Source: Candidatus Rifleibacteriota bacterium (GTDB taxonomy: Bacteria; Muiribacteriota; Ozemobacteria; Ozemobacterales; Ozemobacteraceae). Taken from it: a stretch of 64,000 bases of DNA. The translations under genes were made by a program, and so were the position numbers. Below are positions 4,569-61,081 of the stretch, piece by piece; position 1 is the first letter of the stretch; the number at the start of each line of letters is the position of its first letter. The notes below the pieces were generated by a model that was not told where the DNA came from, did not search any database, and was given only the letters and a program-made list of their open reading frames with translations. The stretch is from positions 64,001-128,000 of the forward strand of contig JADFZL010000003.1 of NCBI GenBank assembly GCA_015232575.1, given 5' to 3'.

Positions 4569-5150
4569 ATGAGTACAGATTCAATTAATGAAGACAAGAA
4601 TCTTATTCTGAAGATACTTGACGGTGAAGGCTCTTTGTACTCTGTTATTGTAACAAAGTATGAAAGGCTGGTTTATAGTTATCTTCTTCCGCAGCTGAGA
4701 ACATTGCAGGAAGTAGAAGATCTTTCTCAGGAAACATTTCTTAAGGCCTACAGGCATCTTGGATCATTTGATGTAGAGAAGAAATTTTCTTCATGGTTGA
4801 TGAAAATAGCCAAAAACCTGCTTATAGACTATAACAGGAAGAAATCATTACTACCAAATACAAATAATACAACAGAAAATTATGAAGATAGTTCGGAAAA
4901 ATTCAAAAACTCAGAAACTTTTTCCCCTTATCAACGTATAGAATTAAAAGAGGAGTTCAAGTCTACTTTCAAAGATATACTTTTGTTACCGGAAGAAATT
5001 CGTATTCCTTTCCTTCTAAGGGTTATCCAGGAACTTAGTTACGAAGAAATCGCTGAAATACTTGATATACCCCTGCAGACGGTGAAAAATCGTATTTTTA
5101 AAGCTCGACAGGCTTTAAAGGAAAAGAGGAAAAGCAATCATGAAATGTAA
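4569..5150 (+). CDS. ECF-type RNA polymerase sigma-70 factor
   Basis: Sigma region 2 ('ETFLKAYRHLGSFD') and region 4 helix-turn-helix ('QELSYEEIAEILDIPLQTVKNRIFKARQAL'). Confidence 0.85.
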   Translation: MSTDSINEDKNLILKILDGEGSLYSVIVTKYERLVYSYLLPQLRTLQEVEDLSQETFLKAYRHLGSFDVEKKFSSWLMKIAKNLLIDYNRKKSLLPNTNNTTENYEDSSEKFKNSETFSPYQRIELKEEFKSTFKDILLLPEEIRIPFLLRVIQELSYEEIAEILDIPLQTVKNRIFKARQALKEKRKSNHEM

Positions 5151-6156
5151 TCTTGATGAAAAGCTTTATCGATTTCATGATGGCGACCTTTCTTCACAGG
5201 AAGGTGCTGAATTTCAGAACCATCTCGGAAAATGCAATTTCTGCCAGAAAGAACTCTACGAAATCCAGGAACAGGAAAGACAGTTCAGGGAAGTTGTTGC
5301 GAGAGTTTTTCCCTCCGGGCAAATGGCTGACTCTGTCATGAGGCGCATAGCTCAGGAGATGCCGATGTTGTACCCAACACCCAGAAAGTCTTTTGACTGG
5401 TTCCAATGGTTTAAATTTCTGGTTCCAGCCATGGCGCTGGTTTTTGGAATGCTTGTTTTCAATAATTTATCTCAAAAACACGTATTTGCTGTGCCCAGGT
5501 CATTTATCTCGATAGAATCATTGAGAAATGACTGTCAATTGAATGGATCACATTTTTCCAAAGGTGATCAGAAAGTCTCTGAATTAAATAAAGAATTTGA
5601 TTTCGAGGGAATTCTTGAATTTGCAATAACCCGCGGAATCGCGAAAAGTCCTGATGCAAGCTGTTATGGCGATTTTGAATCTGTTGAGAAGCTTCAGAAA
5701 ATTACAATAGATGGAAATGGAAAATTTAAGCTTTTTTCTGATTCCCTGGTCTGGGTAAGCGGTGATGCTGAACTTGATTTCAAATTAACGAAACCAATCA
5801 TTGTCAAAGCTGGAAATGCTGATTTTGAAATTACCGGGACGAGGTTGAAAATTTCCGGATCTTCTGAAAATGATCTTTCTGTGACCCTTATTGAAGGTAC
5901 AGTGTTATGGACAGTTGCAAATGAAAAAAAATCTGGTATACTTATTAAAGGGATTCCTTTGAAAAGAAAGGGTGATTCATGGAGTTATAGTTTTACCAGC
6001 CCCTCTTCACAGCCTTCTTCTTTGAACTCGTCACCTTCGAATTTTCCTGAAACGCCCAAATATGAACCAGGGGAAATAACCGGCACATCTGTAAAAGATA
6101 ATCCATTTGAAGAAAATGATGTTGCACCAGATTTTAAAAACAAGGATATGAAATGA
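5140..6156 (+). CDS. anti-sigma factor (zf-HC2 type) with a transmembrane segment and an extracytoplasmic domain
   Basis: Start overlaps the sigma gene stop; N-terminal 'HLGKCNFCQKE' zinc-finger anti-sigma motif; central hydrophobic helix (FKFLVPAMALVFGMLVF). Confidence 0.6.
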   Translation: MKCNLDEKLYRFHDGDLSSQEGAEFQNHLGKCNFCQKELYEIQEQERQFREVVARVFPSGQMADSVMRRIAQEMPMLYPTPRKSFDWFQWFKFLVPAMALVFGMLVFNNLSQKHVFAVPRSFISIESLRNDCQLNGSHFSKGDQKVSELNKEFDFEGILEFAITRGIAKSPDASCYGDFESVEKLQKITIDGNGKFKLFSDSLVWVSGDAELDFKLTKPIIVKAGNADFEITGTRLKISGSSENDLSVTLIEGTVLWTVANEKKSGILIKGIPLKRKGDSWSYSFTSPSSQPSSLNSSPSNFPETPKYEPGEITGTSVKDNPFEENDVAPDFKNKDMK

Positions 6157-6683
6157 AGTTTTCAGGTAGAATAGCATTTTCGATGATTGAGTTACTTGTT
6201 GCCATTTTATTTATTTCTTTTGCCTTTCTTCCGATTTATAATCTTTTCAGGTTTGGGCAAAGGGGCACTTGGAGTAACGAAAAAGAAATTATTGCAACGA
6301 ACTATGCAGGTGATCTGATAAATTTTATGAAGGAACTTAATGTAACGAGTCTTGATAAAATATTTCTCCCAGATGCAGAATCCAAAGAGTTGAAAATGAC
6401 AGAGCAGGAGTTTAAAGGTCGTTTAAGCAAGATTAAATTGGCGCCGCCAGTATCTACTGTGGTTGATCCGACACAATTTGTTCGATCGGTTACAGTTCAG
6501 AAATTTGATGGAAGGCCAAAATCGTCGAGTGTTATCGGAACAGTTGTTGGATGGGTGAAAGAGCTATGGAACAAAAGAGTTGGTGTTCAACATTATCTGG
6601 TAACTGTCACTGTTGACTATCACAAGGAAGGGATGAGCATGGGGCAGGATATTGTTACGCTGTCAACACTTGTAATGGAATAA
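6153..6683 (+). CDS. prepilin-type N-terminal cleavage/methylation-domain protein (pseudopilin-like)
   Basis: N-terminus 'GRIAFSMIELLVAILFISFAF' is a class-III signal-like motif (xFxxIELLVxI); ATGA overlap with the preceding gene. Confidence 0.6.
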   Translation: MKFSGRIAFSMIELLVAILFISFAFLPIYNLFRFGQRGTWSNEKEIIATNYAGDLINFMKELNVTSLDKIFLPDAESKELKMTEQEFKGRLSKIKLAPPVSTVVDPTQFVRSVTVQKFDGRPKSSSVIGTVVGWVKELWNKRVGVQHYLVTVTVDYHKEGMSMGQDIVTLSTLVME

Positions 6684-6687
6684 GGAA

Positions 6688-7260
6688 ATGGTTTTCAGAA
6701 AAAGGGCTTTTACTTTAATAGAAGTGATTTCGCTATTTATCATCGTGACTATGGTCATGGGGGTTTTGTACAAGATATTTTCTGGAACATGGATGAACTT
6801 TTTTAAGACTCAAACCAAATTGACGAATTTGCGTTCAGCCTGTTTACTTCTGGAATATCTGAAACATGATATCAGGTTATCAGACAGAACAGGTGATTAT
6901 AAGTTAGCTACACAGCCATGGGATTTCAACTTTTCGATCCGGGATTCAAAGGGAAATTTGAAAAAGGTGATTTATGACTTTGATGGCAAGGTTATAAAAA
7001 GAAATGAAGGCGGTGGAGCGAAGATAATAAGTCAGGCAAAAGTTGCAAAGTTCGATATGGCAACTACAGCAATTGGAAGCCAAACGTGCTTAAACATCAT
7101 AATTGAGGTTGATGCAGAAAAAGGCGAAGTTGCTGAAGCCAATAGAACAAATTCTTCAAAAGGGAATAAAATGACTCTTTCGGCGAGCCTCTTTCCACCG
7201 TTTTTGCAGAAGAGCAGCATGGATAAGGAAGAGGAATATTGGTATAATGCCAGAAAATAG
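6688..7260 (+). CDS. prepilin-type N-terminal cleavage/methylation-domain protein (pseudopilin-like)
   Basis: N-terminus 'KRAFTLIEVISLFIIVTMV' matches the prepilin motif; begins 5 nt after the previous gene. Confidence 0.6.
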   Translation: MVFRKRAFTLIEVISLFIIVTMVMGVLYKIFSGTWMNFFKTQTKLTNLRSACLLLEYLKHDIRLSDRTGDYKLATQPWDFNFSIRDSKGNLKKVIYDFDGKVIKRNEGGGAKIISQAKVAKFDMATTAIGSQTCLNIIIEVDAEKGEVAEANRTNSSKGNKMTLSASLFPPFLQKSSMDKEEEYWYNARK

Positions 7261-7278
7261 AATTCAGGGGGTGAAGGG

Positions 7279-7770
7279 ATGTTAGGAGCTGAGAAAAAGT
7301 TTGTTGCCTGTCTTTCTCTGGTTGTTGTTTTTTCTATTTTTATTGGAATTCCAGCATGGGCCATGAAAGTACATATCATGGTGGCCGGTGATACCCTCTG
7401 GGAGCTATCTCAGCTGTACTACGGAGAGCCAACACTTTATCAAGTTTTTCTTAAAGTCAACCGTATTACCAATCCGCGTACAATTCCTATCGGAACGCGT
7501 ATTAAAGTGCCAGGTTTTGACCAAATGAAAAAGCTTGCTGCGATGGTAGACCCTAAGGAGATTGATGATTATATCAGTAAGCTTAACGGAGAGCAGGCAT
7601 CTCAAGATACCTCTGGAAATACCTCGGGTTCTGGAAATTCAGGAAATACCTCCCAAGGTAGTAGTTCTATGAAGCAAGTAGACAGAAGTGGTATGAGTTT
7701 CCGGAAAGTTCTTGAGGGACCAGAAACATCTGCAAGCTTGGCAACTGTTTCCAGTTTTATTAAAGAATAA
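7279..7770 (+). CDS. LysM-domain secreted protein with a low-complexity S/G/N tail
   Basis: Signal-like N-terminus; LysM consensus 'HIMVAGDTLWELSQLYYGEPTLYQVFLKVNRITNPRTIPIGTRIKVP'; RBS GGGGGTGAAGGG before the ATG. Confidence 0.7.
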   Translation: MLGAEKKFVACLSLVVVFSIFIGIPAWAMKVHIMVAGDTLWELSQLYYGEPTLYQVFLKVNRITNPRTIPIGTRIKVPGFDQMKKLAAMVDPKEIDDYISKLNGEQASQDTSGNTSGSGNSGNTSQGSSSMKQVDRSGMSFRKVLEGPETSASLATVSSFIKE

Positions 7771-15258: not shown

Positions 15259-16449
15259 ATGAAATCTCTTTCCCTGAAAGATGGTCGAACTGTCACTATA
15301 AAATCTGCAGGACATGAAGATATTGATCAGATAATGAAGCTTTATGATCGGGTATATTCGGGCAGTTACCCTTTAAAGGATGTCACAGATCCACAACAGA
15401 TAAAAAAAAGGATTGAAGACACCAATTATTTCTGGCCCCTTGCATATCATGGGAAGGATTTAATCGCTTCTGTACTTTTTACCGTTGATCAGGTTAACAA
15501 ACTTGGGAAAGTCTATGCTGCAGTTGTGAGAGACGATTTCCGCGGTCACGATGTCATGCATGAGGTTTCAACGCTTGGCATTGAAAGACTTACTAAAATA
15601 ACCAGATCCTGCGATGTTATATACGGAACCGCCCGAACAGTTTCACTTGCCCCACAGGTTATTCTTGAACATCTGGGTTTTCTTCCCATGGGTGTTTTTC
15701 CGAATGTCAGAAAAGTTCAGTCATTTGAAACTCATGGTCTTGAAATCTATTTCAGGGAAGATTCCCTGAAGCTTCGAAAAAAACAGCCCCAGCTTGTGCC
15801 AGAAGTCAGGGAATTTTATCACATAGTACAATCAATCATTCATCTTGAAGACTTTAAGGAGATAATCCTTCCAGTTTTTGACCCAAAGGATATGGGCAGT
15901 CCAATTAATTTTATTATAAATCATGACGAAGCTGACGTTCATCAGAAATTTGAATTATATCAAAACAAAGATTATATGGAAAAAGTTTTTTTTCCATTTG
16001 CAGAGCCAAATATGCTTTTTGTATCTGAAAATGGTGACGCAGAAATTTTTGTTAACCTATGTGAGACAGACGGCAATGGAACAATTTTAGGTTATAGAAT
16101 TCAAAACACCGATTTGAGAAGAGTTCTGTTGTGGTTTTGCGAGGCTGCTTCAAAAGAAAAAATGAGGTATCTTGAACTTCTTGTAAATGCTTACAAGCCA
16201 GAGCTTCAAAGAATTGCCCTAGATGCTAAATTTCTTCCATGTGCATATTTTCCGGCAGCAAAAATGAATGAAAACGGTGAGCGCGAAGATTACGTAGTAT
16301 TTTCAAGGTCGTTTGAAAGTCTTGATTTTATGGATATGAAACTTGGACAGACAAATCGCAGATTTCTTGATGCGTTTATGAAGTGCTGGTATGAAATGCT
16401 GCTGAGATGCCAACCCAGCTTTGATGGCGAGGAGTGGCGAATTGTCTGA
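15259..16449 (+). CDS. GNAT-like acyltransferase-domain protein with a ~250-aa C-terminal extension of unknown function
   Basis: N-terminus 'VTIKSAGHEDIDQIMKLYDRVY' typical of GNAT starts; end overlaps the downstream LuxE-like gene. Confidence 0.45.
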   Translation: MKSLSLKDGRTVTIKSAGHEDIDQIMKLYDRVYSGSYPLKDVTDPQQIKKRIEDTNYFWPLAYHGKDLIASVLFTVDQVNKLGKVYAAVVRDDFRGHDVMHEVSTLGIERLTKITRSCDVIYGTARTVSLAPQVILEHLGFLPMGVFPNVRKVQSFETHGLEIYFREDSLKLRKKQPQLVPEVREFYHIVQSIIHLEDFKEIILPVFDPKDMGSPINFIINHDEADVHQKFELYQNKDYMEKVFFPFAEPNMLFVSENGDAEIFVNLCETDGNGTILGYRIQNTDLRRVLLWFCEAASKEKMRYLELLVNAYKPELQRIALDAKFLPCAYFPAAKMNENGEREDYVVFSRSFESLDFMDMKLGQTNRRFLDAFMKCWYEMLLRCQPSFDGEEWRIV

Positions 16450-17593
16450 GGCAATTAAGCGTTTTCCCTTATCTGAAAAACTGTTCAGTAATCCCATGGC
16501 GTTTCAGCATGATTCGCTATCAGACATTCTTTTTGAAAATTCAATGAAAGAAGCGCTTATCTGGCATTACCTGAATTGTCGGGGTTTTGCTGCTTTCATG
16601 TCTATTCAGGGCTTTAATTCGCTTAAATCACTTGATTCAATAGATAAATGCGAGAAGATTCCACCGCTTTTTGTAAATGTATTTAAGGAATTCAGATTAA
16701 TTTCAATTCCCGAAGAAAAAATTAAACTTGAGTTGACATCATCTGGAACCGGAGGGAAAAAAAGCGCTGTTGTTCTTGATGAAATCTCATATAACAGAAT
16801 TCTGAAAGCTGTATCGGGAGTATTTTCAAGCCTTGGATTAAGAAATGACGAAGAAGAAGTAAACTATATCTGTTTCGCTTATGATCCGAAATATGCTGCA
16901 GACAAAGGAACAACTTTTTCTGATAAACAGCTTACTTATTTGACAAAACGAAAAGATGTGTATTACGCCATAAGATGGAATAAAGAAAAGTCTGATTTCG
17001 AATTCAACCCTGACCAGACTGTAAAAAAACTTTTAAAATTCTCTGTTGACGGTCCTGTCAGATTACTTGGTTTTCCGGCGTATTTGTGGCAGATATGTGA
17101 AATACTTGAAAAGAAGGGAATTCGCCTTCATTTAGGCGACCGCTCTTTTATAATTACAGGCGGTGGCTGGAAAGTTTTCAAAAACAGGGAAGTCCGCAAA
17201 GAAGTTTTCAAAGAAAAAATCGAAGAGATTCTTGGCATTCCACAAAAGAATATCCGTGACAGCTATGGACTTGTTGAACATGGAATACCTTATCTTGAGT
17301 GTGAGCACGGACGAATGCATGTTCCCATATATTCAAGAGCGCGGGTGGTTGATCCTGAGACTTTATTTCCGTTCCCCGATGGAACAGAGGGTTTGCTTCA
17401 TCTTATGACACCATTCCTGACAAGTTATCCTTCATTATCTGTTCTTACTACCGATAAAGCGATATTAGAAAATAATTGTCCATGCGGTCTGGCTGGAAAA
17501 ACTCTAAAAATAACTGGTAGAGCTGGTTTGTCGAAAAATAAGGGGTGTGCAATTTCAGCACTGGAATATATAAAAAAATATGACGGAAAATAA
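16421..17593 (+). CDS. LuxE-family acyl-protein synthetase-like adenylating enzyme
   Basis: 'ELTSSGTGGKKSAVVLDE' P-loop-like adenylation motif and overall LuxE/PaaK-like organisation; overlaps neighbours on both sides (operonic). Confidence 0.65.
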   Translation: MMARSGELSEAIKRFPLSEKLFSNPMAFQHDSLSDILFENSMKEALIWHYLNCRGFAAFMSIQGFNSLKSLDSIDKCEKIPPLFVNVFKEFRLISIPEEKIKLELTSSGTGGKKSAVVLDEISYNRILKAVSGVFSSLGLRNDEEEVNYICFAYDPKYAADKGTTFSDKQLTYLTKRKDVYYAIRWNKEKSDFEFNPDQTVKKLLKFSVDGPVRLLGFPAYLWQICEILEKKGIRLHLGDRSFIITGGGWKVFKNREVRKEVFKEKIEEILGIPQKNIRDSYGLVEHGIPYLECEHGRMHVPIYSRARVVDPETLFPFPDGTEGLLHLMTPFLTSYPSLSVLTTDKAILENNCPCGLAGKTLKITGRAGLSKNKGCAISALEYIKKYDGK

Positions 17594-20186
17594 TAAATAC
17601 TACATTTTTGGTGAGTCTGTACCAGTTGAAAATCTTGATTTCAGATTGATTTTATCTTTTATTAAAAAAGCGTCAGATCTTAAAAACATTTTTTCTCAAA
17701 CTCCGATTGAGCGAATTCTTGATGTTTTGGAAAAAGTTTCAAAAATATGGTCTGATAAAGAGCATCCCTTTGTAAAAAAAGCCCTTCAACTACTTCCGGA
17801 AATGATTGGTTTCAGCCGGGAAATGGTATTGCTGGGAATTGAAGCTGTCTCAGAAATATGTTGCAGAACAAATCTTGAAAAACGGCTGGATTGCGAACTT
17901 GGCAACAGAAAATACACAGACTCATGGGTGTATGATGAAAAAAGAGGCATTGAATTAAAAACGGTTCCGCATGGAGTTCTGCTCCATATCTCAGCGGGAA
18001 ATGTCTTTGTTGGTGCTATTGACAGTCTCATTTCCGGAATTGTCACTAAAAATGTGAATATTCTTAAAATGAGCAGTGCTGACACTCTTTTTCCTGTTCT
18101 TTTTCTTGAAAGCATTCGGGAATCAGACCCTGAAAATATTATCTGGCCATTTCAATGTCTTATCAACTGGCGTGGTGGTGACTCTGATTTTGAAGAAATT
18201 CTTTTTGATTCTTCTCTGACAGTTGTTTTCTGGGGTGGCAAAGAAGCGCTTAAATCGATAAGAGCGAAGTGTGGTGAAAATATCAGATTTGTTGAAAATG
18301 GTCCAAGATTTTCTTTTGCTGTTGGAGATGGAAATTACCTGAAATATTTTTCTACCGATTCTTTTATAAGGGGCCTTGCAAAAGACATTTCAACCTGGGA
18401 TCAGCATGCCTGTTCATCACCTCATCTTGTTTATCTGTTAAACTCAGATGAAAAAACAACAGATAGTTTTATTGAAAATCTTTTCAATGAAATGAAATTC
18501 TTTTCAGAAAATCTTCCTCAGGGAAAACTTGACTTTGACCAGAAGGTTGAGATTCGCAAAATTCGCTCAATTGCTGAGATGAGTTCGGTATATGATTCAA
18601 CAAAGCTTTTCTGTCCGGATGATTTCTCTTTTTCAATTATACGTGAGCCGAAAAAGGAATTCAGAATTTCAAGTCTGAACAGAGTCATTTATGTTAAAAA
18701 CCTTGATTCTGCAGCCGAATTGAAAGAATTTATTTTTCCTTTATCTGCATATCTTCAGACTGTCGGAATATGTCTTTCCCCTGAATTACGTCACGAAGTT
18801 ACAGAAATTCTGGAAAAGCTTGGAGTAAAGCGTTTCACCGAATGGGGTGGGATGTCATCAGGAAAAACGGGAGCTCCTCATGAAGGTTCTTTCTTTCTTA
18901 CAAAATTGGTTGATTTCATTGTAAGGGAGCCTTCTGATTTTAACAGCTATAAACTCGAAGATTTATTTCGTGAGTTAAAAAAGTCGCCGTATTATGCAAA
19001 AATATTGAATGAAATACCGCCTGGTTTGCCGGTTCACGAAGTATTATCGAGATTTCCCGTAATGACAAGAGATATCTTTTATCGAATTTCTCCACCGACA
19101 TCCACCGAAATATTAACTGGACCGCTTGCCGACGCCTATGTCTTTGCCTCTGGCGGTACAACAGGAACTCCGAAATATGCATTTTATTCTAACCAGGAAT
19201 TTCTCTTCACTGCCCAGAAACAGGCTTTTATTTTTTCAAAAGCTGGAATGGAAAGCACTGATAGAACGGCAAATCTTTTTCTGGCAGGGAATCTCTGGAT
19301 GAGCTACACGATAGTTAATCGTGCCATTGAGCTTATAGGATGCCTGAATTTGCCAGTAGCTGCAAATTCAAGCATTGAAAACATTTTCCAATATCTGGAA
19401 TCTCTCAAAGCTTCTGTAGTTGTAGGTTTGCCATCAATGATTGTGCGGCTGGCAGAAGAGGCAAAAAAGAGAAATATATCTCTGAAAATAAAGAAAATAT
19501 TTTATGCTGGTGAACACATGCATCCGGCAATGAAAGAGTTTTTGAAAGAAGTCTTTCAAGCTGAAATAATAAATTCAGCAGGCTATGCCTGTGTTGACAC
19601 CGGGGCAATTGGATATCAATGCCGCTTCCTCACCGGATCTCAACACCATGTTCTTGATGACTTGCAGTATGTTGAAATTTTAGATGAAAATCAGAAACCT
19701 GTTGGCGTTGATTTCCCAGGTGAGATTATTGTTACAAATCTTTATCGTCAGTTAATGCCGATTGTGAGGTATAAGACCGGAGACCTTGGAAAATGGATTG
19801 AAAACACAGGCTGTCAATGTGGCTGTGTCGGAAGAACTTTTGAACTTCTCGGACGATGTGATGATCTTATGGTTATCGGAGGGATAACGCTTCTGCCGGG
19901 CGATGTTGCGAAAGTATTGGCACCCTTCCCGGAAGCACTTTGTTTTCAGATTTCAGCCAGAAAAAATAATCAGAAAGATGTTCTTATTCTTAAAATTGAA
20001 TCAGAAAAATATATTTCAGAAAAACTGATTATTCAGTCCATGCACAATAATTCGTTTAAGTTGAAAGAAGCAATTGATGAGAATTGGCTTGAAATTGACA
20101 TTCAAATGTTAAAACCCGGCTCAATTGAGCGCAATTCAAGAACGGGTAAAGTTCGCCAGGTGATTGACGATAGAAGTAAAGTGTGA
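17580..20186 (+). CDS. fusion protein: LuxC-family acyl-CoA reductase (N-terminal) + PaaK/LuxE-like adenylate-forming domain (C-terminal)
   Basis: N-terminal half has the LuxC-like 'TWDQHACSSPHLVYL' catalytic-Cys motif; C-terminal half has 'VFASGGTTGTPKYAFY' (AMP-binding SGGTTGxPK) and a cysteine cluster 'CQCGC'. Confidence 0.7.
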   Translation: MTENNKYYIFGESVPVENLDFRLILSFIKKASDLKNIFSQTPIERILDVLEKVSKIWSDKEHPFVKKALQLLPEMIGFSREMVLLGIEAVSEICCRTNLEKRLDCELGNRKYTDSWVYDEKRGIELKTVPHGVLLHISAGNVFVGAIDSLISGIVTKNVNILKMSSADTLFPVLFLESIRESDPENIIWPFQCLINWRGGDSDFEEILFDSSLTVVFWGGKEALKSIRAKCGENIRFVENGPRFSFAVGDGNYLKYFSTDSFIRGLAKDISTWDQHACSSPHLVYLLNSDEKTTDSFIENLFNEMKFFSENLPQGKLDFDQKVEIRKIRSIAEMSSVYDSTKLFCPDDFSFSIIREPKKEFRISSLNRVIYVKNLDSAAELKEFIFPLSAYLQTVGICLSPELRHEVTEILEKLGVKRFTEWGGMSSGKTGAPHEGSFFLTKLVDFIVREPSDFNSYKLEDLFRELKKSPYYAKILNEIPPGLPVHEVLSRFPVMTRDIFYRISPPTSTEILTGPLADAYVFASGGTTGTPKYAFYSNQEFLFTAQKQAFIFSKAGMESTDRTANLFLAGNLWMSYTIVNRAIELIGCLNLPVAANSSIENIFQYLESLKASVVVGLPSMIVRLAEEAKKRNISLKIKKIFYAGEHMHPAMKEFLKEVFQAEIINSAGYACVDTGAIGYQCRFLTGSQHHVLDDLQYVEILDENQKPVGVDFPGEIIVTNLYRQLMPIVRYKTGDLGKWIENTGCQCGCVGRTFELLGRCDDLMVIGGITLLPGDVAKVLAPFPEALCFQISARKNNQKDVLILKIESEKYISEKLIIQSMHNNSFKLKEAIDENWLEIDIQMLKPGSIERNSRTGKVRQVIDDRSKV

Positions 20187-52499: not shown

Positions 52500-52728
52500 A
52501 CCTAAATTTTTCATTAAATCTCAATTTTAAACAGCAAATTGAGATTTAATGAAAAATAGTGAAAGCTGCTTTTTCATAAACAGAAATAGGATATTTTCAG
52601 CAACAGACGTAATGAAAAAGTAGAAGCGGATTCCAGACATTTAAGATAAATGCGGCAAGATGCCGAGTATACTGATGTACCTCGAATTATTCAGAAGATA
52701 CTTGTTCGACAAAATGGAGAAAATTAAA

Positions 52729-55272
52729 ATGGCAATCAGTAGAATTAAAAATTATGATTGGAAACCGCTCATTGTAGAAAAACTTGACAATGGAATTACT
52801 GTTATTGTCAAAGAAGACCATGTGTATCCGCTTGCGGTTTCAGATGTCTGGTTTCGTGTTGGCAGTCGCAACGAGGACGAAAAGAACAATGGTATTGCAC
52901 ATTTTCTTGAACATATTCTTTTTAAAGGTACCACATCTCGCGGACCCGGACAAATAGCCAGAGAAATTGAATGTTTTGGCGGGCGCACCAATGCTGGAAC
53001 TTCAAACGATTTCACTCATTATTATATTTCCTGCGAAAGCAGACACATTGAAAAGGCAATTGAAATTCATGCTGATGTATTTAAGAATTCTCTCCTCGAC
53101 CAGAAAGCAATTGATGAAGAAAGAACTGTCATTCTTGAAGAAATAAAACGCTCAGATGATAATCCCAGTAGTAGAATCTTTGAAACTCTCTTTTCTTCAG
53201 CGTTTCCGGGTCATCCATATTCAAGACGGACTCTTGGTACAAGGGTGAATATTGATTCCGGAATTAAACGGGACGATATCGTTTCTTTTTTTCAAAAATG
53301 GTACACCCCGTCGAATATGTATATAATTGTTTCGGGCGATGTTGACAGTAAAAGAATCATTGAATATCTACGGGGCTTATACAGCGATTTCAACAGACAG
53401 GGTTTTTTATTGCCAGATCAAAAATTTTCAGGTTGTTTTACTCCTGAAATCATAAGAAATCGGATGGATGTCAACAAAGATTACATGCTGATGGCTTTTC
53501 CAACAGTTCCTGCTTCAAATTGGCAGGAAAGTCTGATGCTTGATCTCTTCGGAGTCATAATGGGGCAGGGGCGTTCAAGCAGGTTATCAATGGAACTCAG
53601 GGAACGCAGGAATATAGTAACAAGCGTCGGAGCCGGACAAATTTCAATGCTGGATGCCGGTTTATTTCTTGTGAAAACAGAGTTTGACTCTGCAAATGAG
53701 AAAGCAGTCTCAGAATGTATTAACAAACAGTTGTCCACCATTTTAAATGATGGAGTAAACATTGATGAATTAAATAAAGCAAAAGAATATCTTGCGGGAA
53801 TTTACTGGAAATCAATTGAAACTTGTGAAGGAAAAGCCGAAACACTTGGTTCTGCCTGCGTGAAGAACTTTCTTGAAAGAGAATTTGATTACCTTGAAAG
53901 AATCTGGGCAGTATCAGCAGAATCTGTTCTTGAAGTTGTACGTAAATACATTAACACCGAAAAATCTCTGATAAGTCTTGTCAGTCCGGCTTCTTCCATG
54001 AAAACTTCCAGTTTGAAGGAAAATGTCGGGAAATATGATTTTTCAAATGGTACAAGAATTGTACATCGTCAGGTTAAAGGTACTGGGCTGGTTGGAATTT
54101 GTATTTCTGTCGATGCTGGATCACGCAATGAAGCTCCTGGTTTTTCAGGATTAGCTAATTATACAGCAGAAATGCTTGTTAAAGGAACTAAGAATAGAGA
54201 TGGTCAGAAAATACTCTGGGAACTGGAAAATCTTGGCGCAGGATTTTCACCTGTTGTAGAACCAGACCTTGTAAAATTTATCTGTACAGTTCCTGAAAGT
54301 TCGTTTTCAGACACATTTGAATTGTTTTTTGATATTATTCAAAATCCTTCATTTTCAGATGAATGTTTCGGGAAAGAGAAGATTAAAATTCTAACCCAGC
54401 TGAAGTCCGTTGCAGACAATTCATTTGAAAACACCTGGAGAATTCTCAATAAAGCGCTTTATGGGGTTCATCCGTATTCTCACTATCAGCTTGGAGAGTC
54501 ATCAGATGTTGAAAATATCAACGTCGAAAGCCTCAAGAATTTTCATCGGAGCTACTTCACTCCTTCAAGCACTGTAATTGGTTTAACTGGAGACATTTCT
54601 TCTTCCGCAGCAATTGATATTACAGACAAATTCTTTGGACTGCTTAAAAGAAGCCCTCGGTTATCAAAAGATTCTATATGTAAAGTTCCCCAGGATTTTC
54701 CAGTTCGTGAAAAATTTGAAAGATATTACGACAGAAAAGACAGGGGGCAGACTGTTCTTGCAATTGGCTGGCATGGGGCAAGGTTTTCAGACCCTGATTA
54801 CTGGCAATTAAAGGTTCTCAGCACAATTCTAGGTGCAGGAATGTCATCAAGGCTCTTTGATGTTGTCAGAAACAAAAAGGGACTGGCATATTCCATTTCC
54901 TGTGTTTTTCCAACTCGAATAGACAAAGGAATATTTGCAATAATAGCTGGCACTGATCCGAGGACCGAAAATCAGGTCGTAGAAGCTGCAATGAATGAAA
55001 TTAAGTTTATTCAAAATGGCGAAATCTCAGATGAAGAAATTGAACGTGCAAAGAACTTTATCAATGGTCAGTTTCTTCTTTCACATGGAAGCACTTCTGG
55101 TCTGGCCCAATACCTTGCCTGGTTTGAACTTATCGGCGCCGGATTCGAATTCGACAGAAATTTTTCCGAAAATATCCGCAAAGTTACTAAAACTCAAATT
55201 CAGGAAGCCGCAGCAAAATACCTGAATCCCCAAAGAGCAGCCTTAGCAGTTACAGGACCTGCATTGCCCTAA
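52729..55272 (+). CDS. tandem-domain M16 (pitrilysin/insulinase-like) zinc peptidase
   Basis: Inverted zincin motif 'HFLEHILFKGT' (HxxEH) in the first half; second M16-like half lacks it; probable start ATG 52729 (the track ORF starts at 52660). Confidence 0.8.
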   Translation: MAISRIKNYDWKPLIVEKLDNGITVIVKEDHVYPLAVSDVWFRVGSRNEDEKNNGIAHFLEHILFKGTTSRGPGQIAREIECFGGRTNAGTSNDFTHYYISCESRHIEKAIEIHADVFKNSLLDQKAIDEERTVILEEIKRSDDNPSSRIFETLFSSAFPGHPYSRRTLGTRVNIDSGIKRDDIVSFFQKWYTPSNMYIIVSGDVDSKRIIEYLRGLYSDFNRQGFLLPDQKFSGCFTPEIIRNRMDVNKDYMLMAFPTVPASNWQESLMLDLFGVIMGQGRSSRLSMELRERRNIVTSVGAGQISMLDAGLFLVKTEFDSANEKAVSECINKQLSTILNDGVNIDELNKAKEYLAGIYWKSIETCEGKAETLGSACVKNFLEREFDYLERIWAVSAESVLEVVRKYINTEKSLISLVSPASSMKTSSLKENVGKYDFSNGTRIVHRQVKGTGLVGICISVDAGSRNEAPGFSGLANYTAEMLVKGTKNRDGQKILWELENLGAGFSPVVEPDLVKFICTVPESSFSDTFELFFDIIQNPSFSDECFGKEKIKILTQLKSVADNSFENTWRILNKALYGVHPYSHYQLGESSDVENINVESLKNFHRSYFTPSSTVIGLTGDISSSAAIDITDKFFGLLKRSPRLSKDSICKVPQDFPVREKFERYYDRKDRGQTVLAIGWHGARFSDPDYWQLKVLSTILGAGMSSRLFDVVRNKKGLAYSISCVFPTRIDKGIFAIIAGTDPRTENQVVEAAMNEIKFIQNGEISDEEIERAKNFINGQFLLSHGSTSGLAQYLAWFELIGAGFEFDRNFSENIRKVTKTQIQEAAAKYLNPQRAALAVTGPALP

Positions 55273-55323: not shown

Positions 55324-55360
55324 AAACCCTCACCATTGAAGAAATCAATGGTGAGGGTTT
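55324..55360 (+). terminator. rho-independent terminator (AAACCCTCACCATTG-AAGAAAT-CAATGGTGAGGGTTT)
   Basis: Perfect 15-bp stem, then T-rich. Confidence 0.8.
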
Positions 55361-55461: not shown

Positions 55462-55495
55462 AAAACAAAAAGGGGGGCATTTGCCCCCTTTTTAT
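55462..55495. terminator. bidirectional terminator hairpin (A5-GGGGGC-ATTT-GCCCCC-T5) downstream of rpmA
   Basis: GC-rich 6-bp stem flanked by A-run and T-run. Confidence 0.65.
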
Positions 55496-55517: not shown

Positions 55518-55781
55518 TTACTGTGCTACCGTAATAGGAACAATATCAACCCATCTGCGGTTTCTGCGCTGATCAAACTTCACCATTCCGGCTGCAAGTG
55601 CGAAAAGAGTATCATCTTTTCCAATTCCGACATTTCTTCCCGGATTGATAGGTGTTCCTCTTTGTCTTACGAGGACATTTCCAGCTTTAACTACCTGACC
55701 ATCAAACCTTTTAACGCCAAGGTGCTTGGGATTACTGTCCCGACCATTAACTGCTGAACCTGCACTCTTTTTTGATGCCAT
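55518..55781 (-). CDS. rpmA: 50S ribosomal protein L27
   Basis: '[26 protein letters not shown]...VRQRGT' aligns to L27 from residue 1. Confidence 0.95.
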
Positions 55782-55801
55782 ATCAGACCCCTTTCTCCAA
55801 A

Positions 55802-56116
55802 TTACTTTTCAAGTGAAAGAAAACCGGGATACTCACAGGCAAGTCTTTCAAAACCATACCTGAAGACATCTGAGATCAATTTTAAATGTTTCGATTCCCT
55901 GTTTTCGACTAATACGTTAACGTTACACTCACCGCCACTGATATGACCGGTGATCTTGGCATGAAGCTCCTTTTCCAGACCTCCGAGAAAAGTCAGAACA
56001 AGGGACGATACACCTGCACATACAGGGTCGCTTCCTTTTTCTGAATGTCCCGAATGACCCTCGACAATAAATCTTAAAGAATTATCCGAGGGGTCAGGAA
56101 AACAAACTCTGACCAA
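55802..56116 (-). CDS. prp: ribosomal-processing cysteine protease Prp (DUF464) homologue
   Basis: '[21 protein letters not shown]' matches the Prp catalytic His...Cys region; canonical position between rplU and rpmA. Confidence 0.85.
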
Positions 56117-56428
56117 TTAAGCTTTGATCTCTTCGATCTGGATAGCAGTAAAGTCCTGCCTGTGACCATATTTCCGACGGTAATTGGTCTTGTTTTTGTA
56201 TTTCATACCAACAAGTTTTGCACCTCTACCGTGTGATACGACCCTGGCTTTGACATCTACACCTGAAAGGTATGGCTGTCCGATTTGAACTTTCTGTCCA
56301 TCATTAAGAAGGAGAACCTTCTCAACGCTGAAAAGATCATTTGCTTCGCGTTCCATTTTCTCACAACGAATTTTTGAACCTTTTTCCACGGAAAACTGTT
56401 TTCCGCATACTTCTATGATTGCGTACAT
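56117..56428 (-). CDS. rplU: 50S ribosomal protein L21
   Basis: 'MYAIIEVCGKQFSVEKG' canonical L21 N-terminus. Confidence 0.95.
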   Translation of the reverse strand: MYAIIEVCGKQFSVEKGSKIRCEKMEREANDLFSVEKVLLLNDGQKVQIGQPYLSGVDVKARVVSHGRGAKLVGMKYKNKTNYRRKYGHRQDFTAIQIEEIKA

Positions 56429-56687
56429 TGTACTTACCCCCTGAATATTAACCGTTAGAAAGTCTAATCTATCACAAGAATCTTATTATGTCAAGGTTTA
56501 TGAGTAAATATTTCGTTTTTTTTCGGCAACTTCACAACTATTTTCAATAGGATAGTCCATTGAAAAGCCCAATTAGAGGCTTATTATAAGTTGAATTTAA
56601 TTTTTGTAAAATATTAATAATATAGGATTTAGAATCGAAGGTTTGTGATATAATTATCTCCTGTTGTTATAAAAAAATAGTGGGCAA

Positions 56688-57623
56688 ATGGAGCGAATAT
56701 TCATGCCTGAAAAACATGCACGGGTTGGGGCAGTAATGCTTACCTGGAATCAACGGGAAATGACGCTTGCCGGACTTGAATCACTTTCAAAACTTCATTC
56801 TCCTGTACCTGAAATTCTACTGGTCGATAATGGCAGCTTTGATGGAACAATTGATGCAGTAAAAGAACGTTTTCCACAGGTGAAAATTCTGGGGTTGCCT
56901 GAAAATATAGGATTCTGCGCTGCAAACAATCGTGGTGCAGATCTTTTGCTGAAAAATCCGGAAATTGAATATATTATCTTTCTGAATAATGATATCGAAA
57001 TAGCTCCAAATGCAATAAATCTCCTGACACGTTTTATGGATTCCCGTCCGGAAGCCGCTGTATGCGGGCCTCTGATATACTATCATGAACCTTCTGACAT
57101 AATTTGGGCAGCAGGTGGAAAGATTTACTCAGATCTAATGTGGTTTCCTCCGAATTTGCGAGGGAAGAAGAATCCGGGACTGAGAAAGCCACGACAGGTT
57201 GATTATATTCATGGCTGTTCAATCATGCTAAGGCGCTCTGCAATCCAGGAACACGGTCTTTTTGATGAAAGGCTCTTTATTTACCACGATGAAATTGATT
57301 TATGCCATCGTTTAAAATTGGCCGGGAATGAAATATGGCTGATTCCTGAAAGTGTATTGTTCCACAAGGTATCTCTTGCCGTCGGCCAGCATAGTCCGAT
57401 GATGATATATTACACAGCTCGGAATAAAATTCTTTTCTGGGCAAAACATGGAAAAATTTCAGACCTTCCGAAATTCTATGCTTTTCATCTTCTAAAATTG
57501 ATCAGAATATTTTCTAAAGTCCGTAATATCTGGGCTTATCCAGCTCTCTTCAAAGCACTGTTTGATGCCGTAACATCACGATTTGGCAAAGGGCACCTTG
57601 AAAATCGTCCAAAAACAAAATAA
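56688..57623 (+). CDS. family-2 glycosyltransferase
   Basis: 'AVMLTWNQREMT...LLVDNGSFDGT' GT2 DxD-type N-terminal domain. Confidence 0.8.
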   Translation: MERIFMPEKHARVGAVMLTWNQREMTLAGLESLSKLHSPVPEILLVDNGSFDGTIDAVKERFPQVKILGLPENIGFCAANNRGADLLLKNPEIEYIIFLNNDIEIAPNAINLLTRFMDSRPEAAVCGPLIYYHEPSDIIWAAGGKIYSDLMWFPPNLRGKKNPGLRKPRQVDYIHGCSIMLRRSAIQEHGLFDERLFIYHDEIDLCHRLKLAGNEIWLIPESVLFHKVSLAVGQHSPMMIYYTARNKILFWAKHGKISDLPKFYAFHLLKLIRIFSKVRNIWAYPALFKALFDAVTSRFGKGHLENRPKTK

Positions 57624-58606
57624 TGATATTTGATATTGACCTCGATAAATTTAAAAGAAGCCTCGGATTACGGGAATTATTTCTTAAAACTATTTTGCCG
57701 TTGAAATATCCGATAATTCTTAATATTGAACCAACTAATCGATGCAATCTCTCTTGTACATTCTGTCCAAGAAAAATCAGTAAAAGGAAACTTGCAGATA
57801 TTCAATGGATTGATTTCGAGAAAATAGCTCAGGAAGCAGCAGACAATGGACCTATCTACAAAATATTTCTTCAGAAAGATGGCGAACCATTGCTTCATCC
57901 GAAAATAGTTGAGATGGTTCAATGTCTTAAATCTCTTAATTCCGCGCGCAATGTTACTATAATTTCGAATGGTACACTTCTCAATGGCGATCTTTTCACA
58001 TCTCTGGCAAAAGCCGGATTGAATGACATCATCATCAGTGTTGATGCGGTTGATGCCAGGTCCTATTCAGAATTAAAAGGCAGAGATTGTTACCATACAG
58101 TAAAAAAGAATCTTGAAGAGGCTGCCAGAATAAAGAATATTTCAGGCTTTAAAGGTCCGCGTATAAAAGCCAGAATGGTTGAGAGAAAAGGTCATGAAAT
58201 TGAAAAAGAAGTTTTTTCTCAAATCTGGTCAGGTATTGCTGATTCGGTTGATATCACCCCTTTCCACACCTGGATGAATTCAGTTGAAGATCAACGGACC
58301 TATACTTCCAGTATTGAAAGGTATCCCTGTTCGCTTTTATGGTACACCGGAATAATTAATGCAGATTTGTCAGTTTCTCCCTGTTGTATTGATTATAACT
58401 GTGCAGGAGTAATTGGAAGCCTTGAACATAGTAATTTCTATTCAGTCTGGAACGGGCGTGAATTCAATAATCTGAGAAGAAACCATTTGTTTTCAGAATA
58501 TTCGAATACAAGGATTTGTGGTTCCTGCCAATATTGGCTAATAAAAGAAAATCTCGGGAAATGGTTTAGAAGAAAATACAGAATTCAGAAGGCATCAGGA
58601 AGGTAA
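57623..58606 (+). CDS. radical SAM protein with C-terminal SPASM/twitch cysteine-rich domain
   Basis: 'EPTNRCNLSCTFCP' CxxxCxxC; C-terminal Cys cluster 'CSLLWY...PCCIDYNCAG...CGSCQYW'; ATGA overlap with the GT2 gene. Confidence 0.8.
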   Translation: MIFDIDLDKFKRSLGLRELFLKTILPLKYPIILNIEPTNRCNLSCTFCPRKISKRKLADIQWIDFEKIAQEAADNGPIYKIFLQKDGEPLLHPKIVEMVQCLKSLNSARNVTIISNGTLLNGDLFTSLAKAGLNDIIISVDAVDARSYSELKGRDCYHTVKKNLEEAARIKNISGFKGPRIKARMVERKGHEIEKEVFSQIWSGIADSVDITPFHTWMNSVEDQRTYTSSIERYPCSLLWYTGIINADLSVSPCCIDYNCAGVIGSLEHSNFYSVWNGREFNNLRRNHLFSEYSNTRICGSCQYWLIKENLGKWFRRKYRIQKASGR

Positions 58607-58610
58607 ATAC

Positions 58611-60053
58611 ATGAATACTCCCCGAATAGCTTTTGTCAACCCGCCCTTTCTTCCAAGGTATTCAAGAGGGCAGCGATCCCCAGCCGTGACCAGAAGTGGC
58701 ACATTGTATTATCCAATGTGGCTTGCCTATTCTGCAGCTCACGCCCAGAGACTCGGTTGTGATTACACTTTGATTGATTCGCCAGCATCTTCTTTGTCTT
58801 TTGAGGAAACTATTAAAAAAATTCGGGAATTCGCACCTGATTTAACAATTATTGAAGCAGCGACACCAAGTGTCCTTTCAGACCTGAATTTTGCTTTACG
58901 CATTAAGAATGAGAGAATTTCACCGTATGTTGTTGCAGCCGGAACTCATGTCTCAGCATTGCCCGAAGAAGCTTTTCAGTTTGCTCCCGAGCTTGATGCT
59001 GTCATAGTAGGTGAATACGAGATTCCTCTGGAAGAAATTGTTAATGCACTTCGGAAAGGTTCTGATTTTGAAAATCTTGAAGGTGTTTCAACAAAAAAAC
59101 GTCCGGTTATTACGCGCAGTCGATATTTCGAAAACTTAGATGAACGCCCCTTTGTTTCGGAAATTTACAAAAAATTTCTTCCAATTGATGAATATTTTAA
59201 TCCAAATGCACATCATCCGATGGTTGCAATCATCACCGGACGAGGTTGTCCGCACTTCTGCTCTTTTTGTGTTTTTCCACAGACGCTGACCGGAAGAAGA
59301 TATCGAAAGCGCTCTGTTTCTTCTGTAATTTCCGAATTCTGTTGGATTTCCGAAAATCTTCCACAGGTAAAAGGGATATTTATCGAAGATGATACCTTTA
59401 CTGCTGATAGAAATCGTGTTGAAGATTTCTGCCGTGAACTTGCCAGGATCAATCTTCCAGTTACATGGTCAGCGAATGCAAGAGCGGATGTTGAATCAGA
59501 GACAATTCAACTTATGAAAAAATCGAATCTTCGTGCTTTATGTGTCGGCTTTGAAAGCGGAAATCAGGAAATCCTTGAAAAAATCGGGAAGGGAATTTCC
59601 CTTGAACGCATGAGAAAATTTGCCGAAGATTCGCGCAGCGCTGGAATTCACGTTCATGGCTGCTTTATAGCCGGGTTGCCTGGTGAAACACGCTTAACTC
59701 TTCATAAGACTCTGCAATTTGCCCTTTCACTTCCGCTTGACACTGCACAATTTTATCCGCTTATGGTTTACCCAGGTACTAGAGCTTATGATTATGCAAA
59801 ACAGAATGATCTGATTGCAGTTAAAACCTACCGTGAATGGCTTTCACCCGAGGGACTTCACCGATGTGTTGTTAAGACAGATGATTTCTCTCCTGAACAA
59901 CTTGTTCGTTTCTGTAATTTTGCCAGACGAAGGTTTTATTTGAGAAAGTCATATCTTTTTGAAATGCTCAAAAGAGTTATAACAAAGCCAGATGAGCGTC
60001 ACAGGGCAATTCTTTCTGCCAGAACATTTCTGAAACACCTGTTGAAAGACTGA
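58611..60053 (+). CDS. B12-binding-domain radical SAM protein, HpnJ-like
   Basis: N-terminus 'AFVNPPFLPRYSRGQRSP...YYPMWLAYSAA' resembles the HpnJ family start; 'GRGCPHFCSFCVFP' radical-SAM motif. Confidence 0.75.
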   Translation: MNTPRIAFVNPPFLPRYSRGQRSPAVTRSGTLYYPMWLAYSAAHAQRLGCDYTLIDSPASSLSFEETIKKIREFAPDLTIIEAATPSVLSDLNFALRIKNERISPYVVAAGTHVSALPEEAFQFAPELDAVIVGEYEIPLEEIVNALRKGSDFENLEGVSTKKRPVITRSRYFENLDERPFVSEIYKKFLPIDEYFNPNAHHPMVAIITGRGCPHFCSFCVFPQTLTGRRYRKRSVSSVISEFCWISENLPQVKGIFIEDDTFTADRNRVEDFCRELARINLPVTWSANARADVESETIQLMKKSNLRALCVGFESGNQEILEKIGKGISLERMRKFAEDSRSAGIHVHGCFIAGLPGETRLTLHKTLQFALSLPLDTAQFYPLMVYPGTRAYDYAKQNDLIAVKTYREWLSPEGLHRCVVKTDDFSPEQLVRFCNFARRRFYLRKSYLFEMLKRVITKPDERHRAILSARTFLKHLLKD

Positions 60054-61081
60054 TGATGAACAATAAAAATGTCTATGCATCTGTCGTAATTCCTGTCTAT
60101 AACAGGGCTGATCTTCTTGAAAAGTGTTTAATTGCATTGAGTCAGCAGAAGACTTCCTTTTCCCACGAAGTTATTGTTGTTGATGATTGCTCTGTTGAAG
60201 ATTTGTCAAACGTCAGATACAACTTTGAAAAAGGGGATCTTAAGATAACGTGGCTAAGACTTCCTGAAAATTCAGGTCCGGCAGTTGCACGGAATGCCGG
60301 AATAAAGGTTGCTGAAGGAGAAATCATAGTTTTTACAGACTCTGATTGTGTTCCAATTGATTCCTGGCTTCAGAAAATGCTTGTACCTTTTTCTGATGCT
60401 GCTGTGTCAGGGGTAAAAGGTTCATATAAAACAACTCAGACAGACACCTGGGCAAGACTTTCCCAGGTCGAATTCGAAGAACGTTTCGATTTGCTGGATG
60501 CTGCTTCCAGCGTAGATTTCGTAGATACTTATTCAGGAGCATTCAGAAAAAAGCACCTTATTGAAACAGGCGGCTTCGATACTTCTTTTCCAAAAGCAGA
60601 TAATGAAGACGTTGAATTGTCTTTCAGAATCAAGGCTCTTGCCGGAAATTCTGGCGGAAAATTTGTATTTGTAAGAGACGCAGTTGTTTTTCATCGCCAC
60701 CGCGAAGGTTTCTGGAACTATTTCAGACTGAAATTTAATCGTGGCTACTGGCGAAGTAAAGTATATGAAAAACACCCAAAAATGGCTGGAAAAGAAAGCT
60801 ATACTCCGGCAACCCTGAAGATTCAGTTCTTGCTTATTGTACTATTGCCATTTTTGTTTGTACTGCCCATAAAAAAAAGAAATTCGTCTGCAGTAATATT
60901 TTCTTTATGGCTTGCTTCATGTCATAACATGTTTTTTAATGCATACAACAAAAATAATCAAGATCTGATTCCAGCAATTCCATTTTTTACAGCAGCAAGA
61001 GCAATTGCAATACTTTCCGGAATGTTGTACTCATTCCTTTCATCAGTAAACCATGTCTTACCAGTGAAGATAAAGTGCTGA
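60053..61081 (+). CDS. family-2 glycosyltransferase with C-terminal transmembrane segment
   Basis: 'SVVIPVYNRADLLEKCL' and 'VVDDCSVED', 'FTDSDCVP' DxD motifs; hydrophobic C-terminal helices. Confidence 0.8.
   Translation: MMNNKNVYASVVIPVYNRADLLEKCLIALSQQKTSFSHEVIVVDDCSVEDLSNVRYNFEKGDLKITWLRLPENSGPAVARNAGIKVAEGEIIVFTDSDCVPIDSWLQKMLVPFSDAAVSGVKGSYKTTQTDTWARLSQVEFEERFDLLDAASSVDFVDTYSGAFRKKHLIETGGFDTSFPKADNEDVELSFRIKALAGNSGGKFVFVRDAVVFHRHREGFWNYFRLKFNRGYWRSKVYEKHPKMAGKESYTPATLKIQFLLIVLLPFLFVLPIKKRNSSAVIFSLWLASCHNMFFNAYNKNNQDLIPAIPFFTAARAIAILSGMLYSFLSSVNHVLPVKIKC

Follow-up and report, generated by a model that had tools for sequence, protein, structure and literature searches.

The rplU-prp-rpmA locus in the 64,000-nucleotide stretch of DNA analyzed here (the window) comes from a Candidatus Riflebacteria genome, in which it forms an ordinary compact ribosomal-protein operon. 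Based on sequence comparison and a structure model, and with a probability of about 0.8, this normal operon belongs to a lineage that combines a short ribosomal protein L27 with a Prp protease that is predicted to be functional. The L27 encoded here is natively of the short type, in which the initiator Met is followed directly by ASKK, and it has no cleavable extension.

As the preliminary description of this DNA had proposed, the open reading frames and their Pfam matches place prp between rplU and rpmA (Table 1). The prp gene starts with a TTG codon that immediately follows the TAA stop codon of rplU, an abutment that is also observed in the related contigs L004 and L009. A 20-nt spacer separates prp from rpmA, and the AAAGGGG Shine-Dalgarno-like element lies 6 nt 5′ of the rpmA ATG. 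Over their full lengths, the window Prp and L27 are 100% identical to the NCBI entries MBF0406796.1 and MBF0406795.1, respectively, both from a Candidatus Riflebacteria MAG. The starts annotated for these entries agree with those read here, and the NCBI annotation already names the products Prp and L27. The promoter-like site of rplU is a pattern match only, with a regional count of such sites that is not above the shuffled expectation.

Table 1 Coordinates of features at the rplU-prp-rpmA locus (window positions) and of a small ORF in related contigs (contig positions)
Feature	Position	Strand	Remarks
rplU (bL21, 103 aa)	56117..56428	-	First operon gene; Pfam PF00829 118.8 bits; TIGR00061 106 bits
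prp (cysteine protease Prp, MEROPS C108 type, 104 aa)	55802..56116	-	Pfam PF04327 57 bits, cut-off 27
rpmA (bL27, 87 aa, short form)	55518..55781	-	Pfam PF01016 123.1 bits; TIGR00062 115 bits
In-frame TGA closing the rpmA frame upstream	55809..55811	-	Inside the prp 3′ end, in another frame
Shine-Dalgarno-like element GGAGAAAGGGG	55788..55798	-	In the prp-rpmA spacer; sequence reading only, function not implied
Promoter-like site TTGACA, 17-nt spacer, TAGATT, with TG	56466..56494	-	Upstream of rplU; consensus scan
Terminator-like GC hairpin GGGGGCAAATGCCCCC plus T-run	55473..55488	-	30 nt past the rpmA stop; pattern match only
Small Cys-rich ORF	L004 3907-4059; L005 3566-3712; L006 3441-3587; L007 4577-4735		
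Small Cys-rich ORF	L008 2404-2550; L009 3569-3721; L010 3532-3678; L011 3507-3692		

Several other features of the window were recorded. The gene that converges on rpmA encodes an 870-aa protein that has two M16 peptidase units (52660-55272, +). Between this gene and rpmA there is an unusually long perfect hairpin (55324-55360) with a 16-bp stem, GAAACCCTCACCATTGA...TCAATGGTGAGGGTTTTC, which is additional to the GC hairpin proximal to rpmA. On the other side of the operon, a four-gene cluster (56688-61081, +) diverges from the rplU promoter region in the order GT2 glycosyltransferase, radical SAM/SPASM protein, B12-binding radical SAM protein and second GT2; its first three genes are found in the same order beside rplU in L004 and L011. 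Elsewhere, the region 16421-20186 (+) encodes two proteins: a LuxE-like acyl-protein synthetase of 390 aa and, after it, a protein of 868 aa in which a LuxC-like acyl-CoA reductase domain is fused to an AMP-binding domain. A 779-aa ORF at 2138-4477 (+) has no Pfam match, and the region 4569-7770 (+) contains an ECF-type sigma factor, three ORFs without a Pfam match (338, 176 and 190 aa) and a LysM protein.

The N-terminus of L27 was read directly from the ORF translation. The protein begins MASKKSAGS, and position 1 of the PF01016 profile falls at residue 2, in agreement with the previous statement that L27 starts at a mature-type N-terminus. Upstream of the ATG, the rpmA frame contains a TGA followed by nine sense codons that translate as KVIWRKGSD. 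The in-frame TGA had been placed eight codons upstream of the ATG; it is indeed present, but it is the 10th codon rather than the eighth. As had also been stated, none of the nine codons between this TGA and the ATG is an alternative ATG, GTG or TTG. An N-terminal extension ending in ...LQ(F/L)F↓A (the arrow marks the cleavage site), which is the strict mark of an L27 matured by Prp, is absent from the window L27 and likewise from the L27 proteins of the whole clade. Because the window L27 has no cleavable leader, Prp is not expected to mature L27 here, and, judged from the encoded sequence, it cannot process L27 in this genome. The earlier conclusion that no L27 propeptide can be encoded, and hence that Prp has no L27 substrate, thus stands, and the same is seen in the relatives.

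Nine related loci were retrieved, eight via L27 homologues and one via a Prp profile (L004-L011 and L014). The closest L27 homologues are 64-86% identical to the window protein, and the names Riflebacteria, Ozemobacter sibiricus, Ozemobacteraceae or Rifleibacteriota are attached to several of them. All of about 22 close homologues are 84-92 aa long and start with MAHKK, MASKK or MATKK, with the exception of one that starts with MEHKK. In each of the nine contigs, the gene for a PF04327 protein (called length, 91-110 aa) follows that for L21 and precedes that for a short L27; with the window included, prp lies between rplU and rpmA in 10/10 Riflebacteria loci. An in-frame stop is found 2-13 codons 5′ of the L27 ATG in 9/9 related contigs. 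Most relatives have a Shine-Dalgarno-like motif of the AAAGGGG/AAGGAG type before this ATG (GGGGG in L007), and none is evident in the 9-nt spacer of L011. Across the sequences compared, the combination of Prp and a short L27 is a phylum-wide trait of Riflebacteria and is not peculiar to the window genome. This comparison of L27 N-termini and prp presence in related genomes had been recommended in the preliminary description, where the locus was viewed as an exception. That view is not upheld, as Prp together with an extension-less L27 proved to be common in the lineage (9/9 contigs). A propeptide in close relatives, which would likewise have spoken against the original reading of L27, was not observed among the roughly 22 homologues or in the nine contigs.

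These data also bear on the idea that an L27 propeptide does exist and is hidden by an assembly error or by a noncanonical start, such as the ATT located seven codons upstream of the ATG. This ATT is the single such codon between the TGA and the rpmA ATG. Initiation at this codon, however, would add (M)WRKGSD, which is unlike any Prp site, and it would overlap the Shine-Dalgarno sequence. In addition, the in-frame stop is only 2 codons from the ATG in L008, L010 and L011, and the L27 proteins of the clade are all 84-92 aa in length. A hidden propeptide can therefore be given almost no weight. Because the upstream stops recur in the nine related contigs and the close L27 proteins are short, an assembly error that conceals an upstream start, the objection foreseen in the preliminary description, is taken to be excluded.

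Two further observations were made in the related contigs. Downstream of rpmA, eight Riflebacteria relatives have a conserved ORF of 48-61 aa (for example, MSAQELMALYRIKAPSCPCCKRIVSRYEKTLRLSPEDRRHLEGCLMQG; Table 1) with a CxxC...H...C pattern. This ORF has no Pfam match, and a tblastn search showed it to be absent from the window, in which rpmA faces the convergent M16 peptidase gene instead. In L014, the 91-aa Prp call (2456-2776) looks too short. The in-frame upstream sequence, VIEIVFRYPTTASLH directly before MSVKGHAG, fits the clade N-terminal consensus MIEIxF; therefore, the true start is probably a GTG 15 codons upstream of the called start.

The window Prp matches PF04327 over residues 1-99 with an E value of 2.3e-15. 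It contains the catalytic residues His21 and Cys33 and an 11-residue flexible loop that spans G20-D30. A profile prepared from nine Riflebacteria Prps was used to search for further clade members and identified about 32 clade-type Prp clusters at E <= 6e-22; other Prps begin at an E value of 1.7e-15, leaving a clear score gap. The clade ORFs are intact, with lengths of 102-110 aa, in these approximately 32 clusters. When 35 clade members were aligned, the columns averaged only 54% identity, and ten of them proved invariant: M1, G20, H21, G28, D30, V32, C33, S37, L39 and G57. The His/Cys dyad, described previously as intact, is present in the window Prp and invariant in all 35 members. The window Prp can be aligned without gaps to Staphylococcus aureus Prp through the active site, with G20, H21, G28, D30, C33 and S37 corresponding to S. 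aureus G21, H22, G29, D31, C34 and S38, respectively. In the S. aureus enzyme, H22 and C34 constitute the catalytic dyad, the clamp loop hinges on G21 and G29, the P3 glutamine of the substrate is hydrogen bonded by G29 and D31, and the G21A, D31A and S38A mutants are inactive (PMC9405229, section 3.4.1). All six of these functional positions are among the ten invariant columns of 104, an outcome with a chance probability of about 1.4e-7 (simple hypergeometric).

To this conservation can be added a confident predicted fold. The AlphaFold2 model of the window Prp has a pLDDT of 92.1 and the secondary structure elements E E H E E H E, and only the clamp loop (residues 20-30) is less confident. 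A Foldseek comparison with the PDB gave 14 hits with E<=1e-3, all of which are Prp structures. The TM values are 0.77 for S. aureus Prp in its substrate-bound form (7JVS/7KLD) and 0.66-0.75 for Thermotoga maritima Prp (1S12), and the Prps of S. mutans and S. pneumoniae were also matched. The NCBIfam PRK14553 equivalog models for Prp score the window protein far below their cut-offs in 11/11 cases (best, NF011133, with 34.5 bits versus 171), and the window protein is therefore a divergent Prp.

Together, these results describe an intact Prp that is predicted to be a catalytically competent C108 cysteine protease under purifying selection. The preliminary description had left room for Prp to be a relic, decaying since L27 lost its extension. 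Prp does evolve faster than its neighbors (nine-locus mean amino-acid identity of 38%, versus 63% for L21 and 73% for L27), and its scores under every NCBIfam equivalog cut-off could be read in the same way. These features are outweighed by the intact ORFs, by the invariance of the functional residues across the clade alignment, by the confident fold and by a Prp dN/dS of 0.19. This last value comes from L005/L008 (L21, 0.23; L27, 0.10), the one usable pair, as nearly all other pairs show saturation at synonymous sites. A decaying Prp is thus very improbable, and the relic option does not hold.

An intact Prp beside a short L27 has precedent. According to Hotinger, Gallagher and May 2022 (PMC9405229), every species with a long L27 encodes Prp, and the converse is untrue: Prp without a long L27 is found in all spirochetes, some Tenericutes and some Thermotogae (sections 3.1-3.2). 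Their Table 2 examples of Prp with a short L27 are Borrelia, Treponema, Leptospira, Brachyspira, M. pneumoniae, T. maritima and T. naphthophila. The premise that lineages with Prp carry an extended L27, from which the preliminary description had started and which is also stated in the abstract of a 2026 preprint, is therefore over-generalized; the spirochetes and some Thermotogae and Tenericutes contradict it (PMC9405229). Riflebacteria are not among the six Prp-encoding phyla given in PMC9405229. The arrangement observed here is thus very probably an already documented configuration, for which Riflebacteria represent a newly seen lineage at the phylum level.

Prps that do not cleave L27 tend to have shorter L2 loops and a more neutral pI (PMC9405229). 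The window and its relatives belong to this class in that each pairs a Prp with a short L27, and the Riflebacteria Prps share the tendency toward a neutral pI. They do not follow the tendency toward a short loop: the G20-D30 loop has 11 residues in 9/9 Riflebacteria Prps measured. Because of this 11-residue loop and a gap-free fit to the Firmicute structures, which is unlike the situation in T. maritima, the predicted architecture is assigned as that of an L27-cleaver-type Prp situated in a short-L27 genome.

Candidate substrates were sought by scanning for the motif L[QNE][FLMHWY]F[AGS]. The scan recovers every positive control (L012, L013, L001 and L002). The first of these, a Firmicute-like rplU-prp-rpmA-obg locus, encodes a 97-aa L27 that starts with MIRMNLQLF↓AHKK. 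In the 64-kb window and about 50 kb of Riflebacteria flanking sequence, the same scan found nothing credible at the N-terminus of plausible ORFs. A looser N-terminal regular expression gave only spurious internal matches. A search of the genome for other proteins with an (F/L)(F/L)A↓SKK-like motif had been suggested in the preliminary description; the scan with the motif given above, which covered the window and the related flanks, yielded no credible candidate.

The other three controls are from phage-like sequences. When genome and metagenome contigs were scanned with the window Prp as a single sequence, the only matches were two prophage loci of Clostridia and a short metagenome contig; a word-indexed protein search with the same query returned only the self match. 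L001 (1277-4700, CAMFFO010000068.1) and L002 (1259-4270, CALYTB010000098.1) are uncultured Clostridia MAG contigs with prophage-like head modules. In both, a portal-sized ORF of roughly 570 aa comes first, then a Prp-like protease (52 bits to PF04327) and then a protein that contains ...NWARLQLF↓AEGAP; a further ORF in L001 starts with MDIFDLQLF↓AEAGN. These loci look like cases of a phage-encoded Prp with its own candidate substrates adjoining. L013 (2501-4420; JGI metagenome 3300029705, Ga0224414_10037507) is a phage head module in which a 97-aa Prp (90.9 bits to phrog_4478) precedes a DUF4355 scaffold protein that starts with MKKHLIDLQMF↓AEGG and, after this, a 305-aa capsid-like protein that starts with MKKTINLQLF↓AAGD; Phage_connect_1 and HK97-gp10-like genes lie further downstream.

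The absence of a leader on L27, together with the conservation of Prp, supports the suggestion made in the preliminary description that Prp acts on another protein, and Prp probably does act on something other than L27. Sequence-specific cleavage of such a protein is suggested because the catalytic residues and the residues that grip the P3 Gln are invariant. In this proposal, the most likely mechanism, Prp would still cut N-termini site-specifically after a hydrophobic ...(L/I)-Q-x-F motif that is followed by a small residue, and it would have at least one target other than L27 whose gene lies outside this locus. Among the targets suggested in the literature, the foremost would be FlhB, a flagellar export protein, which would be cut at its N-terminal extension. 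That prp lies where it does and is co-translated with rplU and rpmA would then be a legacy of the ancestral operon, and may also reflect a nonproteolytic role in L27 delivery or 50S assembly.

FlhB as the Prp substrate in organisms with a short L27 was proposed by Wall, as relayed in PMC9405229. In these lineages, FlhB has an N-terminal extension that ends in an L27-like ...LQ(L/W)F↓A (PMC9405229, Table 3). No experimental demonstration of Prp cutting FlhB was found for any organism in the accessible literature. Neither flhB (judged by the NPTH motif) nor, among ORFs of at least 150 aa, any flagellar Pfam domain is present in the 64-kb window. [quoted passage not shown] By analogy with the other short-L27 lineages, FlhB is tentatively put forward as the substrate. 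A flagellar substrate leaves the strict retention of prp between rplU and rpmA unaccounted for.

Alternatively, Prp may cleave a substrate that is not FlhB, either another host protein or a prophage capsid or scaffold protein with a ...LQxF↓A leader. The nearest non-Riflebacteria relatives found for the window Prp include phage Prps with such substrates adjoining (L001, L002 and L013), the window Prp itself matches phrog_4478, and the P3-binding residues G28 and D30 are conserved. No candidate was found, however, in the 64 kb of the window or the approximately 50 kb of related flanks, and a phage substrate would not account for purifying selection on a host gene throughout the phylum. This alternative is somewhat doubtful.

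The operon position would be explained if Prp were kept for a nonproteolytic job only, as a dedicated chaperone or assembly factor with L27 or a late pre-50S particle as its binding partner. Such a role would account for the location of prp in 10/10 loci and for the direct stop-start junction of rplU and prp in three of them (the window, L004 and L009), and a chaperone role has been suggested for S. aureus Prp (PMC9405229, section 3.3.2). On the other hand, binding needs neither an invariant His/Cys dyad nor the Gly20, Gly28, Asp30 and Ser37 that are retained over 35 divergent sequences, and tight binding in S. aureus requires the cleavage sequence (PMC9405229, section 3.3.2), which the window L27 lacks. 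An exclusively nonproteolytic Prp is therefore unlikely. Chaperone and protease roles are compatible with each other, and a putative chaperone function could accompany the proposed cleavage of a non-L27 protein.

The locus is in itself ordinary. Its wider relevance stems from the pursuit of Prp as an antibiotic target, which is based on the premise that the essential job of the enzyme is L27 maturation. In lineages with a seemingly functional Prp and no L27 leader, the enzyme would have another conserved role. Riflebacteria are a deep-branching, independent example in which the enzyme still looks to be of the L27-cleaving type. Because the full Firmicute-type clamp loop is kept in a short-L27 clade, the Riflebacteria Prp is useful for comparative substrate searches. 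If a conserved ...LQxF↓A-type leader is present on Riflebacteria FlhB or on another protein, a comparison with spirochetes and Thermotogae could reveal a second physiological Prp substrate. It could also tell whether protease and substrate formed an older pair to which the L27 leader was added secondarily. As a cautious proposal, Riflebacteria may be an independent and previously unlisted phylum that has retained a Firmicute-type Prp, with a full clamp loop and invariant catalytic and P3-Gln residues, for a non-L27 substrate.

The best characterized points of comparison are S. aureus Prp (YsxB, C108; 4PEO, 7KLD and 7JVS) and the streptococcal Prps (2G0I and 2IDL), with which the window Prp has the position between rplU and rpmA in common. 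With S. aureus Prp it also shares the fold (the TM of 0.77 to 7JVS/7KLD), the His/Cys dyad, the essential Gly, Asp and Ser residues and an 11-residue L2 clamp loop that is of equal length and aligns without gaps. In contrast, identity to the S. aureus and streptococcal proteins is only 14-24% in the Foldseek alignments. The pI is 5.9 for the window Prp and 5.0-8.8 for nine clade members, compared with about 4.27-4.45 for S. aureus Prp (4.27 computed; PMC9405229). In addition, S. aureus Phe42, which stacks on the P1/P2 Phe residues, falls in a gap in the global pairwise alignment with the window Prp. The cognate L27 of the window is without a leader of the MLKLNLQFF type, and the defining Prp reaction is therefore impossible here.

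The phage Prp-like proteases (phrog_4478; L013, L001 and L002) belong to the same Pfam family as the window Prp, share its active-site motif GHA...KGxDxVC and are among its best-scoring non-Riflebacteria relatives. They differ in context: the phage enzymes are found in head-morphogenesis modules (portal, Prp, scaffold and capsid) with ...LQ(L/M)F↓A substrates adjoining, whereas the window Prp is found in a ribosomal operon and has no such neighbor.

T. maritima TM1457 (PDB ID: 1S12) and the spirochete Prps (Borrelia, Treponema and Leptospira; PMC9405229) likewise pair Prp with an L27 that starts with M-A-(H/T/S)-K-K. Like the window Prp, the Prps of these short-L27 lineages have a more neutral pI than the Firmicute Prps. 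The clamp loop sets the two apart, as T. maritima Prp is missing five L2-loop residues relative to the Riflebacteria profile (GHAP-----DKTLC). With this profile, T. maritima Prp scores 23 bits, compared with gap-free matches of 38-48 bits for three Firmicute structures.
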